Virus record (IMG/VR): IMGVR_UViG_2778261058_000005
Location: 1 to 4,446 of that record
Direction: 5' to 3' (one strand)
Source of the DNA: a virus
Taxonomy: Duplodnaviria > Heunggongvirae > Uroviricota > Caudoviricetes
Length of the DNA stretch: 4,446 bases
The position numbers were made by a program, and so were the translations under genes. Positions within the stretch are counted from its first letter, which is position 1. Each line of letters starts with the position of its first letter. The notes beneath the pieces were generated by a model that saw nothing but the letters and a program-made list of their open reading frames with translations, made no database searches and was not told the origin of the DNA. Below, in pieces: positions 328 to 4,446 of this stretch.

Positions 328-1053
328 TTAAAGCGAGCGGATACCAACGCTGACCAGATGCTCAGACAGATCCGGCTCCGGTTCACCACCATTGACCAGC
401 ATCCGGCTCATTGCTGTAAACATCGCAACAGGGCCGTCGATTTTGGCTTCCGGCGTGGATTTATTCGGGAAGATATTGTCGTTTTTGTCCGGTTTTACCG
501 TAACGTTAGACATCATCCAGTTCATGACCGGATGATTGCTGTGATGGAAACGCCCGGCATAGACCAGTGATTCCGTTTCCTTCATGGCCTCTGACAGATT
601 GCGGACCGTCTGCGGAACTTCCACCAGCGGTATACCTTCTTCAGCCAGCGCCAGACTGAACTGCATTGCGCTCCACGGGTCAAATCCCAGTTCCCTCAGG
701 TTTTCACCGCCAATCCATTCCAGCAGGTCACTTTTTATCTGAGTATGATCGATAACATCACCATCCGTCAGGATGAGCTTATCCATCTCCGCCCACTTCC
801 GGTAAAGTTCTGCCTGCTGCCGTGAGCATCGTTCCAGCCGTCCTTCCGGAAGCCAGAATTTAAAATCGGCATGAACATGCCCGTTATCCGTTCGCCAGAG
901 TTTTGCCGCCGCACAGATATCAATCTTATGAGCAAGGTCGACGCCGACCCACATGGGATATGTTTTCAGCTCATGCTGTGGAGCGATGTATTCACACTTC
1001 TCCCACTTAATCATATCCATCCAGGCAGACTCGGCAGTGACCCACACATTCAT
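328..1053 (-). CDS. Stand-alone large-terminase nuclease-domain homolog (TerL C-terminal RNase-H-like domain only; no ATPase domain)
   Basis: The 241-aa ORF aligns by eye colinearly, with one 1-residue indel, to residues ~313-553 of the TerL encoded at 1580-3241, at roughly one-third identity. Shared motifs: NVW/NIW start, [10 protein letters not shown] vs AGLDLSSTSD, DGDVID vs PGDCID, GFDPW vs GFDTW, NKxx..KID..VA near the C-terminus. The acidic residues expected for the terminase nuclease active site are retained. An in-frame stop lies 6 codons upstream of the ATG, so no ATPase domain is encoded. No clear SD, so the exact start is uncertain (ATG at codons 12 and 14 are alternatives). Confidence 0.7.
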
Positions 1054-1140
1054 GTGTTTCGTGAGAATATTTCAAGTTTTTTAAAATTGACTGTATATCA
1101 ATCGTTTAACATGAAAAAACAGTCTTTATAAATCATCGAG

Positions 1141-1172
1141 CAATACACAGCGCAATACACGTATCTGTATTG
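1141..1172. promoter_or_regulatory. Operator-like site: direct repeat CAATACAC (1141-1148, 1153-1160) and perfect inverted repeat CAATACA-N6-TGTATTG (1153-1172)
   Basis: Read directly from the sequence. It lies ~90-120 bp upstream (minus-strand sense) of the 241-aa ORF start, in an AT-rich non-coding region. Further ATACAC-like half-sites occur at 1183-1189 and 1201-1206. A -10-like TATAAA (minus strand, ~1126-1131) lies between the palindrome and the ORF. Promoter position not pinned down. Confidence 0.35.
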
Positions 1173-1325
1173 TTTTAATGCTGATACACACCGTTTTTTG
1201 ATACAGTGATTCGACCTACCATCGCGAAGCATTTTTTATTTCTTGTGTGTAACAATCTGACGAGGTGAGCACTCAAAGAGATAAGAGGCAGTAGAAATTT
1301 CGATCCCCCCTGAATGCAATTTTTC

Positions 1326-1337
1326 GTATATATATAC
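1326..1337. repeat. Perfect 12-bp alternating palindrome GTATATATATAC
   Basis: Read directly; immediately adjacent to the tandem GCGGGTTA array. Confidence 0.6.
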
Positions 1338-1344
1338 AAAACAG

Positions 1345-1370
1345 TGCGGGTTATGCGGGTTAGCGGGTTA
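1345..1370. repeat. Three head-to-tail copies of (T)GCGGGTTA (1345-1353, 1354-1362, 1363-1370)
   Basis: Read directly from the sequence. Same motif as the spaced array at 1448-1500 but in inverted orientation. Confidence 0.65.
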
Positions 1371-1402
1371 TCTTCGCGTGCTAATTATCTTTTACTCTTT
1401 AA

Positions 1403-1415
1403 TATCAATATGTTA
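1403..1415. promoter_or_regulatory. IHF-like site TATCAATATGTTA (matches WATCAANNNNTTR) in the AT-rich spacer between the two repeat arrays
   Basis: Consensus match by eye. AT-rich context means chance matches are plausible. Confidence 0.25.
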
Positions 1416-1447
1416 AAAAACAACGCATTTAAATATCAGCCAGAATG

Positions 1448-1500
1448 TAACCCGCAAGACATTCAAAATAACCCGCAAACACCCCTCAAATAACCCGCAA
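1448..1500. repeat. Three copies of TAACCCGCAA at 1448-1457, 1469-1478 and 1491-1500 (spacing 21 and 22 bp, about two helical turns)
   Basis: Read directly. This is the reverse complement of the GCGGGTTA tandem motif. The array starts ~80 bp beyond the terL stop codon. Confidence 0.65.
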
Positions 1501-1579
1501 AAACATCCCTGAAAGTAGGTGCCGGTAATACTGAAAATTTATTCCATTAAATGAGCATTGTCCTCTCTCATCCATTCCG

Positions 1580-3241
1580 TTACACACCATCAAACGCCGC
1601 AAGCCGCTCTTTGTGGCTGTCGCTCATATCGAATGCAAATTCCTCATGCTCTGCCTGGAATGTGCCAAACGCCATCAGCGCCGCAACGCTCGGGTCTATC
1701 TTGTTGGATGATTTTTTCTTGTTCGGCTTGATATTGGCGTTCGCGTCACTCTGCATCACAACATTACTCATTGACCAGGCCAGCACCGGATCACCACGAT
1801 GCACAATCACCTTCCGGTTAACAAAAACTTCGAACGATTTCGCCGCCGGACTGAAACGAAGGTATGTTTGCGGGAACGGCTCCACCTCAAATCCTGCGCC
1901 CTGTAGCTGCGTCCTCAGGTGCGTGGCGTTCCATGTATCGAAGCCCACCAGCCTGATATTGAAATTTTCTGCATCTGCCATGATGTCATCACGGATACGG
2001 TCATAATCAATGCAGTCACCCGGTGTTGTGCGTATCCAGCCCGCCTTTACCCACTGGCGATAGATGGCGCGGTTTTTATTGGCGGGGTTCTGTAGCTGAA
2101 ATTCCGGCAGATAGTGACGGGAAACCAGCATAATCTTTTTACCGACCGGAAAGGCATAGCACACGCTGGAAATATCGCTGGTTGATGATAAGTCCAGCCC
2201 CGCGTAGCACTCCTGCCCGTATAAATCCGCCTCCGCGAACGTTCCGGCGCACTCCGCCCATGCACCGTTACCCATCCACGGCGTAGCCCCCTGACACCAG
2301 ATATTGAATCGCTTGGTGAGCATTTCCACCCACTGCGACGGAATACCCCGCGCTTTCTGGATGGTTGAGGCCAGTTTTTCACGATCGACGGAAACATCGA
2401 TATTGGGATTCGCCTTTATCCACATCGCCGGATCGTCAACCTCGCTTTCATCATCCAGCTCGTAAATCAGCACGAACATGGATTCGTTCACCTCTTCACC
2501 ATCCAGTATCTGGCAGCAATAGTCGTAGTGTTGTTTACAGGCTGAAACAACGTTGCTCCCCGATGTGGTGATGGCAAATAATAACCCCTCCGGACGCGCC
2601 CCCATTCCCAGTTCAAGCGCGGAATAAACCCCGTTGTCAGGGTGCAGGTGATATTCATCCACAATGGCAAGACTCGGGTTTGTACCTTCAATGGTTGCCG
2701 CTTTTGCTGCCAGTGGTTTTAACAGGCTGTTGGTTTTCGGGTGTATCACCTTGTGTGCCTGAATATTTACCCGCTTTCGTAACGGTCGGGATAAAAGGCA
2801 CATCTGACGCGCATCATCAAACACGATCCGCGCCTGATCACGACTCACGGCGGCGGTGTAAATATCCTGCTGCCCGTTTTCCATAACCAGAAACCAGTTA
2901 GCCAGGATAGCGGCGACCGTGGATTTGGCATTTTTTCGCGGTACTTCAATGAATGCGCTGGTGTATTTGCGCCGCCCGGTGGCCTTAACCTTAAAGCCCA
3001 GGATGCACGCAAAGGCGAACTGCTGCCACGGCTCCAGCTCAATGGGGCTACCGCGCATTGCGCCTTTTACGTGCGGGCACACCCTGGAAAAGGCAATAAA
3101 CCGCTCCACGACCTCCGGATCGAACGTGTAAAGGGGGTTTTCAAGGTCAGAAAAATACCGTTTAACGGCCTGTTTCAGTCGTTTACAGGCCGTAATTTTG
3201 CCGTTTTTTACGCCTTCTGCGTACTCATGCCAGGCGGTCAA
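1580..3241 (-). CDS. terL: Phage terminase large subunit (ATPase plus nuclease), 553 aa, TTG start
   Basis: ORF track 1580..3241; start codon is TTG (plus-strand CAA at 3239-3241). P-loop-like PRKNAKST (residues 101-108) and Walker B LAIVDEYH (191-198) in the N-terminal half. C-terminal nuclease motifs GLDLSSTSD (D350, D356), GDCID (D409, D412) and KID (D516). SD-like GAGGA lies 5 nt upstream of the TTG, inside the terS acidic-tail codons. Family assignment (HK97/Terminase_1-like) is from memory of typical sequences, not from a search. Confidence 0.9.
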   Translation of the reverse strand: MTAWHEYAEGVKNGKITACKRLKQAVKRYFSDLENPLYTFDPEVVERFIAFSRVCPHVKGAMRGSPIELEPWQQFAFACILGFKVKATGRRKYTSAFIEVPRKNAKSTVAAILANWFLVMENGQQDIYTAAVSRDQARIVFDDARQMCLLSRPLRKRVNIQAHKVIHPKTNSLLKPLAAKAATIEGTNPSLAIVDEYHLHPDNGVYSALELGMGARPEGLLFAITTSGSNVVSACKQHYDYCCQILDGEEVNESMFVLIYELDDESEVDDPAMWIKANPNIDVSVDREKLASTIQKARGIPSQWVEMLTKRFNIWCQGATPWMGNGAWAECAGTFAEADLYGQECYAGLDLSSTSDISSVCYAFPVGKKIMLVSRHYLPEFQLQNPANKNRAIYRQWVKAGWIRTTPGDCIDYDRIRDDIMADAENFNIRLVGFDTWNATHLRTQLQGAGFEVEPFPQTYLRFSPAAKSFEVFVNRKVIVHRGDPVLAWSMSNVVMQSDANANIKPNKKKSSNKIDPSVAALMAFGTFQAEHEEFAFDMSDSHKERLAAFDGV

Positions 3242-3581
3242 GCTCGTCCTCTTCCTCTGTTTCCGGTGGATTTCTGCGGCGGCTTACCGGGTCAAAACCC
3301 AGCAAAGAAGCCATTTTGATCATTATTCTTTCTGCGTCAGCCTTTGCGCTCAGGGCGGGGTTTCTGCTCTCACTGCCCTGACTGTTAACAATGCTGAATC
3401 CGCGCGTCGCAAGGTCTTCGACGGCTTTGCGGTATATGGAGTAGTTAACGCAATACAGCTCCAGATTGCTCCAGTCGGCGGGGGTAAGGTCTTCCCGCCC
3501 GGAAAGCTGGCGCGATTTTTCCTTCCACTGCCTGACCGCGATTTCATCCAGGTAAGCGGGGGCTTTTGGTGGTCTTGCCAT
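3225..3581 (-). CDS. terS: Phage terminase small subunit, P27-family-like, 118 aa
   Basis: Start placed at the internal ATG (3579-3581), giving the N-terminus MARPPKAPAYLDEIAVRQW..., which resembles the MAGRPPKP-type start I recall for P27-family small terminases. Conserved-looking core LTPADWSNLELYCVNYSIYRKA...LGFDPVSRRR and acidic tail ETEEEDELDRLA. Its 3' end overlaps the terL start by 17 nt. The 165-aa version from ATG 3720-3722 adds a non-protein-like extension and is treated as an overcall. Confidence 0.8.
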   Translation of the reverse strand: MARPPKAPAYLDEIAVRQWKEKSRQLSGREDLTPADWSNLELYCVNYSIYRKAVEDLATRGFSIVNSQGSESRNPALSAKADAERIMIKMASLLGFDPVSRRRNPPETEEEDELDRLA

Positions 3582-3700
3582 GTTCTTTTTTCGCCCAATT
3601 ATTTTCAAAAAAATTCCCGTGCACAAAAATTTGAGGAGGCGGTCGGTGTCCGGCAGGGACGGTTTCGTCCTGAAAACCTCCCCCACCCCCTCTGACAGCC

Positions 3701-3886
3701 TCACCAGCGATTGCGAAAACATTCCATGACCTCGCGGTCACGGTCGGTTAATCGCTTCGGTGTGGTGCGTTCTGTGCGCCCTGTCCTGTTGACTTTGTGC
3801 CCTGTCTCCTGTGTCTTCCATAAGTCACGCTGCCTTATCAGTCCACGTATCAGCCTGTTTTGCTCCTGTTCAGTCATCATCGCCAT
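3701..3886 (-). CDS. Possible small basic protein (61 aa) between HNH and terS
   Basis: C-terminal part of ORF-track entry 3701..4081, taken from ATG 3884-3886: MAMMTEQEQNRLIRGLIRQRDLWKTQETGHKVNRTGRTERTTPKRLTDRDREVMECFRNRW. Arg/Lys-rich. Overlaps the HNH 3' end by a few codons in another frame. No recognisable motif and no clear SD, so it could be a chance ORF inside the cos region. Confidence 0.2.
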   Translation of the reverse strand: MAMMTEQEQNRLIRGLIRQRDLWKTQETGHKVNRTGRTERTTPKRLTDRDREVMECFRNRW

Positions 3887-4310
3887 ACATCCAGTCGTTA
3901 CGATGTGCCGCCCGTTCTTCCTGCTCGCGATACATGCCCGCCTTACGGTTCGCTTTCGTGGCTGGATCTTCCCGTGTCGTCTTACGGTTGTGGCACGTCT
4001 GGCACAATGCCTGGTGGTTCCACTCAGGCCAGAAGAGAACATCACCGCCGCCATTGATGGGAATGATGTGATCCACCACAAGAGCTGGCGTATAAATCCC
4101 CTTAGCCAGACAACGCACGCATAACGGGTTTTTGCTCAGGTACAGGGCGCGGTATTTGTCCCACTGCCGGGAATACCCACGCGCGCGGCGGTGCCCCCGT
4201 CTGGCATCCTCTGCACGCCATGCAGCCCGCCTGTGCTCTTCACACTTGCCGGACTTCACGCGCTTATTACAGCCCGGCTCAGTGCATCGCCTTAATGGTT
4301 GCCACGGCAT
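3870..4310 (-). CDS. HNH endonuclease, packaging-associated type, 146 aa
   Basis: Cys pairs CTEPGC and CVRC...CQTCH with the His-Asn-His core DHIIPINGGG...WNHQALCQTCHNRK. G-rich SD-like GGGGG ~7 nt upstream of the ATG. Sits immediately upstream of terS-terL, the usual position of the HNH that cooperates with terminase in HK97-like cos phages. Confidence 0.85.
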   Translation of the reverse strand: MPWQPLRRCTEPGCNKRVKSGKCEEHRRAAWRAEDARRGHRRARGYSRQWDKYRALYLSKNPLCVRCLAKGIYTPALVVDHIIPINGGGDVLFWPEWNHQALCQTCHNRKTTREDPATKANRKAGMYREQEERAAHRNDWMYGDDD

Positions 4311-4446
4311 CAGTACACCCCCACATCACGATAAACCGACCAGAGCGCAGAAATAGCCATAGGCAGTTCAGACTGTTCCACAGGTGATGTCAGCGCCAGT
4401 GATATAAGACGGTAATTCACCATTTGGATTGTCCGCTCCACCCAAC
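4310..4446 (-). CDS. 3' end of an upstream gene (C-terminal ~44 codons; gene starts beyond window end)
   Basis: Manual minus-strand translation gives ...WVERTIQMVNYRLISLALTSPVEQSELPMAISALWSVYRDVGVY then stop. The TGA (4310-4312) shares one base with the HNH ATG (TGATG). Product not recognised; a chance open frame is possible. Confidence 0.35.
   Translation of the reverse strand, partial: WVERTIQMVNYRLISLALTSPVEQSELPMAISALWSVYRDVGVY

Follow-up and report, generated by a model that had tools for sequence, protein, structure and literature searches.

Why a terL gene should be followed by 526 bp of AT-rich, repeat-laden DNA and then by part of a second terL, rather than by a portal gene as is normal for HK97-like packaging modules, was the question raised by the stretch of viral DNA analysed here (the window; 4,446 nucleotides). 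The coordinates on which the original prediction of a synteny break rested were confirmed. Thus, terL ends with its stop at 1580, a non-coding gap of 526 bp (1054-1579; 36% GC) is found next, and the 3' half of a second terL lies beyond it. The repeats in the gap also proved to be real and non-random, comprising six TAACCCGCA/TGCGGGTTA 9-mers at 1345-1500 and, at 1140-1160, a GCAATACAC pair. Misassembly does not account for the arrangement, because 35 complete E. coli genomes contain the entire window at 97-98.5% identity. From the comparisons described below, it is very probable that the window spans attR of a 14-15 kb satellite of the HE-PICI/cf-PICI type, inserted by its integrase and in the same orientation in terL of a prophage with an HK97-type head.

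Genes of the window and of the surrounding loci

All genes of the window are on the minus strand. At 1-134 is the 5' end of the portal gene of the helper prophage, which runs past the window start and was identified from the annotation of locus L001 (strain ETEC4090; 18893-20134) and from gene order, which matches that of the uninterrupted locus L004. Between this gene and terL is a small helper ORF of 60 aa (134-316), taken from the ORF list and given as hypothetical protein in the annotation of L001 and L004 (1577-1759), for which no match was found in a Pfam search. The 3' part of helper terL (328-1064), approximately codons 341-585, encodes the nuclease domain and is annotated 'missing N-terminus'; the 241-aa ORF at 328-1053 matched the TerL nuclease profile PF20441 at positions 64-283 of 286 only. 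On the other side of the gap is satellite terL (1580-3241), the last gene of the satellite, which codes for 553 aa with PF03354 ATPase and PF20441 nuclease domains, followed by the P27-family small terminase gene terS (3225-3722; PF05119), for which the RefSeq start is later and corresponds to window 3581, by the gene for an HNH endonuclease (3870-4310; PF01844 and annotation) and by the 3' end of a head-tail connector gene (4310-4387; annotated at L001 24310-24612). The GC content of 1065-1579 was 0.363 compared with 0.526 for terL and 0.515 for the helper terL fragment. Satellite TerL and the interrupted helper TerL are 31% identical, in keeping with the suggestion that two packaging-module lineages are juxtaposed at this locus.

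The connector gene is cut off in the window's strain. Homology to other copies ends at 4387, and the remaining nucleotides (4388-4446) are the terminus of an IS21-family insertion sequence, as indicated by nucleotide matches; a 63-nt query from this terminus matched about 2,800 records, mostly plasmids, and the match in L040 stops approximately 40 bp before istA. An IS21-family element therefore interrupts the connector gene at 4387/4388 in this strain and, with this gene disrupted, the window's copy of the satellite may be defective for transfer and possibly is no longer transferable.

Portal, protease, capsid and integrase genes as well as att sites, which the original prediction had proposed to look for in the flanks, were all found in L001. 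The satellite measures 14,042 bp between att sites in L001 and 15,245 bp in strain 042 (L005). In the direction of transcription, the genes of the L001 satellite are those for a tyrosine integrase, two AlpA-type regulators, BRO-N, Icd-like, DUF4222, primase-like, SSB and PerC proteins and, in the late part, those for major capsid, prohead protease, portal and head-tail connector, then HNH, terS and terL. Pfam matches on the satellite included the integrase (PF00589 together with the arm-DNA-binding domain PF13356), two Phage_AlpA proteins and a DUF927 primase, and capsid, S78 protease, portal and connector genes were also present. No tail or lysis genes are annotated between the att sites of L001 or 042. 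Directly adjoining the satellite integrase in L001, and before it, are prophage HNH, terS and a terL annotated 'missing C-terminus', while after the AT-rich gap are the terL annotated 'missing N-terminus', the small ORF, portal, protease, capsid and a full contractile tail module that ends at potB. The 15-kb block of 042 is the same, its DUF927 primase being intact, and it interrupts terL of another prophage, one with a lambda-like tail. The satellite and the interrupted terL are co-oriented in both strains, with int, AlpA, primase and terL of the satellite on one strand with terS, terL and portal of the helper. The surrounding prophage is assumed, by analogy, to be the satellite's true helper.

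The two halves of helper terL thus flank the satellite, and the N-terminal half in L001 is 14 kb away from the C-terminal half. What had been taken for a terL-fragment cassette is the 3' half of the host prophage terL, the 5' half of which is 14 kb off, beyond the satellite. The idea of a satellite-like element that borrows terminase functions was correct as to the satellite, an element that extends from int to terL, and incorrect as to the borrowing, HNH-terS-terL, capsid, protease, portal and connector genes all being its own.

Uninterrupted helper terL was found in approximately 900 genomes, of which L004 is an example, in the order terS-terL-small ORF-portal. A portal gene just beyond the window start, in an order common to related phages, had been named as the finding that would speak against a break in synteny. 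Such a gene is indeed present, starting at approximately 134 and in the order that is normal in these approximately 900 genomes; the break is nevertheless real and results from nesting of one element in the other. In proteobacterial cf-PICIs, genes for capsid, protease, portal and connectors precede hnh-terS-terL (Alqurainy et al. 2023, 10.1101/2022.09.08.507074), which indicates that, in the satellite's family, terL is normally the last gene and portal is upstream. The portal gene of the satellite is accordingly upstream of HNH and the order of the helper genes is normal, so that the break in gene order stems from nesting.

Crossover core, att arm and in-silico excision

Breakpoints were located at a 7-bp core by alignment of uninterrupted terL with both junctions, an approach that had been suggested along with the prediction. 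This block of identity, shared between attL, attR and attB, is TTGGTAA in L001 and 042, with attB seen in L004. Comparison of the three att sites placed the attR core of the window, TTCGTGA, at 1058-1064. This is the rarer allele ('tcacgaa' as published), TTGGTAA (or 'ttaccaa') being the commoner, and the two core substitutions are the sole differences between the 526-bp gaps of the window and 042. The window's strain is represented by the attR side, attL being outside the window. A 'locking' mutation or descent from a rare attB allele was considered as an explanation of the substitutions, and locking was dropped, 'tcacgaa' being a published core allele in both attL and attR; since it is the reverse complement of the window core, the two substitutions represent a known core allele and not damage. 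An uninterrupted terL with the TTCGTGA core was not found among 5,426 genomes.

When the satellite was excised in silico at the core, an intact helper terL of 585 codons with no internal stop was obtained in three combinations. Identity between restored terL and the uninterrupted allele was 579/586 for L001, in which the N-terminal fragment is at 35114-36134, and 563/586 for 042. The terL fragment of the window, when joined to the N-terminal half from L001, likewise contained no internal stop. The crossover is at approximately codon 341, where the conserved segment ...NFFTKHMNVW... links the ATPase domain to the nuclease domain. As judged from these alignments, the satellite splits helper terL at codon ~341, and the 526-bp gap is satellite DNA that extends from its last gene (terL) to the crossover core, i.e., the integrase-distal att arm.

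These findings bear on the view that the gap is the scar of illegitimate or homologous recombination between packaging modules in a decaying prophage mosaic. Two adjacent terL lineages, one of them truncated, and an IS nearby in the window's strain are what such a scar might leave. Nevertheless, the missing half of terL is intact 14 kb away and gives a full ORF when spliced at the 7-bp core, 35 genomes and two distinct prophage backgrounds share the identical junction, and the element has an integrase, AlpA, a doubled motif at the published spacing and att strings that match those published. The scar explanation is effectively refuted by these results and retains hardly any probability. The moron insertion or random mosaic junction originally proposed is likewise replaced by a site-specific attR with a 7-bp core.

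The gap itself is composed of segments with different distributions. The integrase-distal att arm at 1065-1214 (30% GC) is specific to HE-PICIs, having been found only in about 34 genomes with a terL-embedded satellite, and is absent from PICIs at clpS/cspD. Next to it is a flank (1215-1317) common to other PICI termini at lower identity, as seen in an alignment (A3) of the window with 042 and with L002 and L003, and the last part of the gap (1520-1579) is the terL 3' flank. Gap positions 162-467 were covered by BLAST matches in about 200 genomes, and the module at 1215-1520 was 80-90% identical in about 200 other E. coli genomes; in all, ~240 genomes of this species have the module. In L002 and L003, this module is the integrase-distal end of classical PICIs at clpS/cspD, the late genes of which are quite different. 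The sole match to the gap in a phage-collection search was one of 75 bp, in L042.

The possibility that moron-like cargo, either a small protein or a regulatory RNA, is encoded in the gap was weighed in view of its short ORFs of 38-59 aa and of a 58-aa hypothetical protein that is annotated in one genome and overlaps the module edge. None of the short ORFs within 1054-1579 matched Pfam, an Rfam search of the gap gave no match at E<=1, no gene or CDS is annotated there by RefSeq in three complete genomes, and no sigma-70-like promoters or intrinsic terminators were found in the gap on either strand as compared with 2.7 and 0.5 expected. Conservation, moreover, follows the iterons rather than a reading frame. 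Cargo of this kind is thus highly improbable.

Within the HE-PICI-specific arm, motif search revealed the doubled motif tgTGTATTGCantgTGTATTGCa (plus strand, GCAATACACAGCGCAATACAC) at 1139-1162 on the minus strand, 1140-1160 of the window being the reverse complement of the doubled motif published for HE-PICIs. Exactly two co-oriented copies occur per element, one at each end. For the published motif, which also occurs twice per element, distances of 81±2 and 132±2 bp to the attP centre are given by Tommasini, Mageeney & Williams (PMC10111431). The near edges of the copies found here are 79 bp from the core centre in the gap and 134 bp on the int side, values to be compared with those published in the knowledge that the measuring convention of that paper is not exactly known. 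In PICIs with other integrases (clpS/cspD and phoQ; including EcCICFT073), the doublet is a different one, AACTACACCATTAACTACACC, with the 12-bp register retained; again two copies have the same orientation, the first just upstream of int and the second close to attR. Since the integrase carries the arm-DNA-binding domain PF13356, the doubled motif is best read as a candidate integrase arm-type site. In its architecture, the satellite resembles the lambda attP/attR intasome, where the tyrosine integrase likewise possesses an arm-binding domain, the overlap core also measures 7 bp and arm-type sites flank this core on either side, in an AT-rich arm. The putative arm sites of the satellite differ from those of lambda in being tandem doublets at ~80 and 134 bp, and its target is inside a phage gene, for which no substitute end is supplied.

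Relation to described satellites and proposed cycle

The nested configuration, site group, core alleles and doubled motif were already published in 2023, and the present finding is therefore confirmatory. The elements in question are HE-PICIs of site group A:Terminase_1:246 (Tommasini, Mageeney & Williams, NAR Genom Bioinform 2023, PMC10111431; preprint 10.1101/2022.07.18.500453). The supplement of that paper lists E. coli elements of about 15 kb (A_Terminase_1_246) with the att identity 'ttaccaa' and with the second allele, 'tcacgaa', in attL and attR; for one of the tcacgaa elements, the helper given is a 57-kb prophage at potB. The published attL string, including sequence upstream of int, was identical to L001 at 163/163 positions, and published attR strings with the tcacgaa core matched window 963-1116 at 145-146/154. 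The integrase, a tyrosine integrase with an arm-binding domain, may belong to the single HE-PICI integrase clade. As far as these sources describe the group, its members share with the present satellite the att block ttaccaa/tcacgaa, two copies of a doubled TGTATTGC motif, each at a set distance from the core, the zones Integration/Bro/Replication/Late and, in some cases, helpers that are ~57 kb prophages at potB. Nothing essential differs, the IS21-family insertion in the connector gene being peculiar to the window copy.

The likeness to cf-PICIs is also close. Genes for int, alpA and primase, morphogenesis genes followed by hnh-terS-terL, the lack of tail and lysis genes and proteins distant from phage counterparts are common to both. 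The prototype, EcCIEDL933, is 15.4 kb and the nominal size of cf-PICIs is 10-15 kb (10.1101/2022.09.08.507074), so that the 042 satellite (15,245 bp) is slightly above this range and below the prototype. cf-PICIs use six attB sites in the bacterial chromosome (10.1101/2022.09.08.507074) whereas the present satellite is inside a prophage gene, and for it the small capsids and tail-only piracy of cf-PICIs are putative.

From sequence and published work on relatives, we infer the following course of excision, replication and packaging. The arm-binding domain of the integrase would bind the doubled GCAATACAC motifs at ~80 and 134 bp on either side of the 7-bp core and form an intasome with the core. 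No full-length helper TerL would be made as long as the satellite is integrated, and late transcription of the helper could read into the co-oriented satellite, no terminator being predicted in the gap. On induction, Int and AlpA would excise the satellite at the core and thereby restore the reading frame of helper terL. The excised satellite would then replicate from one or more iteron origins and package itself, using its own HNH, TerS and TerL and its own small capsids and taking only tails from the helper. Given its own capsid and terminase genes, tails are presumably all that the satellite needs from the helper. The nesting would accordingly be hyper-parasitic, with a satellite in the packaging gene of a prophage blocking the phage terminase until the satellite leaves. 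For the annotation of prophages and satellites, it matters that split terL 'pseudogenes' of the present kind do not represent decay, and the arrangement also bears on the spread of virulence-associated islands in pathogenic E. coli.

Iteron module of the integrase-distal end

The only new lead is a conserved module, similar to a second origin, at PICI termini. A description of such a module was not found in the papers searched, and the word 'iteron' does not occur in the text of the HE-PICI preprint. The module begins with a palindromic AT box, TTTTTCGTATATATATACAAAAC (1318-1341; 12.5% GC), a candidate unwinding element. Repeat search identified three abutting iterons, TGCGGGTTA, TGCGGGTTA and AGCGGGTTA, at 1345-1370 on the plus strand. 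An AT-rich spacer of 77 bp (1371-1447; 28.6% GC) separates these from three TAACCCGCAA iterons (1448-1500; plus strand), which have a phasing of 21-22 bp and are inverted relative to those at 1345-1370. In alignment A3 (window, 042, L002 and L003), no variation was seen in the box or in either iteron array, while the flanks and the spacer, the most variable part of the module, drifted.

The relationship of these repeats to the replication region of the satellite was evident from the distribution of perfect TAACCCGCA in the 32.5-kb locus L005, where 12 copies were counted compared with 0.24 expected. Eleven of the 12 are in two clusters, one in the gap and one directly 3' of the primase gene (L001 28931-29055; L005 24460-24584). 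The reverse complement of 1335-1515 reads as three TGCGGGTTA (21-22 bp phasing), the 77-bp spacer and three abutting TAACCCGC(A/T), and the primase-adjacent cluster as four TGCGGGTTA (21, 21 and 11 bp apart), a 45-bp spacer (28.9% GC) and two abutting TAACCCGCA. The same 9-mer, the 21-bp phasing, the AT-rich spacer and the opposite orientation thus suggest that the gap module is paralogous to the satellite's own origin and inverted relative to it. A scan of species-representative genomes for the iteron triplet gave 34 loci, all of which were unrelated microsatellite-type AACCCG repeats from other phyla and were set aside.

PICI origins, as described by Fillol-Salom et al. (2018, PMC6092414), lie directly 3' of rep and consist of two iteron sets with an AT-rich region between them, and the canonical cluster at L001 28931-29055 occupies this position immediately 3' of rep. 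The gap module resembles the PICI/SaPI-type origin in having three plus three iterons around a 77-bp AT-rich spacer, with iterons identical to the primase-adjacent ones of the satellite. It differs in being inverted and at the far end of the element, where it follows terL at ~7.5 kb from the primase gene rather than immediately 3' of primase, and in being present also in PICIs with other origin iterons. Satellite P4, with its ori/crr pair, provides a parallel for two separated clusters of one initiator iteron type in a small satellite with a primase-helicase-type replication protein. The ori/crr of P4 is cited as the cognate site of the alpha protein (PMC6092414); the iteron found here is unlike the P4 type I repeat, Rep is a DUF927 protein, and the cis role of the second site is putative. 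Most likely, to judge from these resemblances, 1318-1500 is a second Rep-binding origin-type site and an inverted paralogue of the primase-adjacent origin.

The TAACCCGCA arrays could instead be accessory sites for recombination, bound by AlpA/excisionase or by integrase arms, and not replication sites. The int-distal att arm of lambda carries Xis sites, and the present iterons are likewise in the int-distal arm, as inverted arrays around an AT-rich, bendable spacer. Their position argues otherwise, the iterons beginning ~285 bp from the core and past the doubled motif, and an identical iteron cluster adjoins the 3' end of the primase gene, at 6-7 kb from both att ends. The module is also present in PICIs with a different integrase, att site and doubled motif. 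A recombination role is thus improbable, although it is the least so among the alternatives considered.

A packaging site was also envisaged, i.e., a PICI cos with a non-lambda cosB, in which the iterons would be R elements retained from Rpp-type PICIs. Rpp-type PICIs have an unusual cosB (PMC6739421), L002 and L003 encode DUF1441-family or terS-like proteins, and a weak cosN-like string is upstream of the box in L003. This string is not conserved in the window, however, and no lambda-type cosN (GGGCGGCGACCT-like) was found within 3 mismatches in L002 or L003, nor was there an exact copy in the loci scanned. EcCICFT073, the cos1, cos2 and ori of which have been mapped by experiment, contains two exact cosN sites and lacks both the TAACCCGCA iterons and the box. 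In HNH-dependent packaging of the HK97 type, moreover, cos usually adjoins HNH/terS. With no cosN beside the repeats and no iterons in the mapped cos regions of EcCICFT073, the lambda-type cos reading was rejected, and a packaging site of any such kind is very unlikely.

To return to the origin-type reading, the gap-type module is kept perfectly in L002 and L003, the primase-adjacent iterons of which (GTCGTCCCA and GTAGACAG) are unrelated. An explanation in terms of the element's own Rep only is therefore incomplete. In these two elements, either the Rep of another satellite may act in trans or some other factor may bind the module; differences between L002 Rep and 042 Rep are mainly in the N- and C-terminal segments. 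A stronger proposal is that 1318-1500 is a functional second Rep-binding origin or crr-like site that was displaced to the integrase-distal end and is under purifying selection in PICIs with unrelated iterons, and hence that it serves for replication in trans by the initiator of a co-resident satellite (or that another common factor binds it). This proposal is tentative and, as a whole, rather doubtful; if true, it would mean that one satellite hitchhikes on another.

The AT box was also noted outside the gap-type module. Thus, TTTTTCGTATATATATACAAAAC directly precedes the primase-adjacent ori iterons of L002 itself (L002 23209-23230) as well as iterons in L042. The latter, a 2.2-kb contig from a lysate, contains a DUF927 primase gene followed by both module types in tandem. 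Across both modules of L042, 10 of 11 iterons are GTGGGTTA in place of GCGGGTTA, and this co-variation of the iteron in the two modules is as predicted for a shared binder.

Crossover core alleles and the homologous position in satellite terL

Between the 526-bp gap of the window, which separates the terL of the helper-embedded PICI (HE-PICI) from the 3' part of helper terL, and the corresponding region of strain 042, only two differences were noted. These were at positions 1060 and 1063, both inside the 7-bp crossover core (1058-1064), which reads TTCGTGA in the window as opposed to TTGGTAA in 042. Both substitutions are synonymous and at third-codon positions of the terL frame. The core of the window thus corresponds to a published second core allele, 'tcacgaa', which is present in attL and attR alike (PMC10111431, supplement). 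Uninterrupted terL with the TTCGTGA core was found in none of 5,426 complete E. coli genomes.

In the satellite's own terL, at the position homologous to attB (window 2300-2330), the sequence TTGGTGA was read by eye. On comparison, also by eye, this heptamer is one base from either known core allele, and its flanks are unlike those of the helper core. Because the flanks differ, integration of the satellite into its own terL is probably prevented; similar prevention of self-integration has been recorded in the literature for another HE-PICI.

Doubled motifs of other PICIs

According to the paper that described HE-PICIs (PMC10111431), other PICIs are without the HE-PICI doubled motif. PICIs that are not helper-embedded were found to carry a doubled motif of their own, AACTACACCATTAACTACACC, in two co-oriented copies, one approximately 25 bp upstream of int and the other near attR. 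The copies were at 15688-15708 and 29639-29659 of L002 and at 15776-15796 and 26375-26395 of L003 (both PICIs at clpS/cspD), and at 4885-4905 and 16104-16124 of EcCICFT073 at the phoQ site (L041). The 12-bp register of AACTACACCATTAACTACACC is identical to that of the HE-PICI motif, and these doublets look like the counterpart arm sites of another integrase group.

Origin-like modules and replication proteins

At the end distal to the integrase gene, the L002 and L003 PICIs have a perfectly conserved copy of the box-plus-iteron module of the window (1318-1500), at 16110-16290 and 16030-16210, respectively. The iterons of the primase-adjacent origins, GTCGTCCCA in L002 and GTAGACAG in L003, are unrelated to those of the module, which in these PICIs is a putative non-cognate, or 'orphan', origin-like site. 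Two origin-type modules were also noted in tandem after the 3' end of a DUF927 primase gene in the 2.2-kb contig OR845527.1 (270-560), with iterons changed to GTGGGTTA in both modules; the source of the contig was a lysate of phage propagated on an EDL933-derived host. This contig, deposited as an unverified 'phage' record, looks like PICI DNA.

The DUF927 replication proteins of the strain 042 satellite (L005 24607-26727) and L002 (23549-25693) are nearly identical over the central approximately 420 residues and diverge in the first approximately 140 and last approximately 150 residues. Since the ends of these proteins diverge and the origin iterons of L005 and L002 are also unlike, the comparison suggests a swappable origin-recognition domain.

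Intactness of satellite copies

The primase gene of the ETEC4090 satellite (L001 29078-30365) is frameshifted and shortened whereas the primase of the strain 042 satellite is intact (706 aa); thus, intactness varies among copies of the satellite. The window copy may itself be defective because an IS21-family element interrupts its head-tail connector gene. The terminus of this element occupies the last 59 bases of the window (4388-4446), which match approximately 2,800 E. coli records, for the most part plasmids; the insertion sequence probably also explains the window boundary at 4446. In L040, a locus with istA, the match to the insertion sequence stops approximately 40 bp short of that gene.
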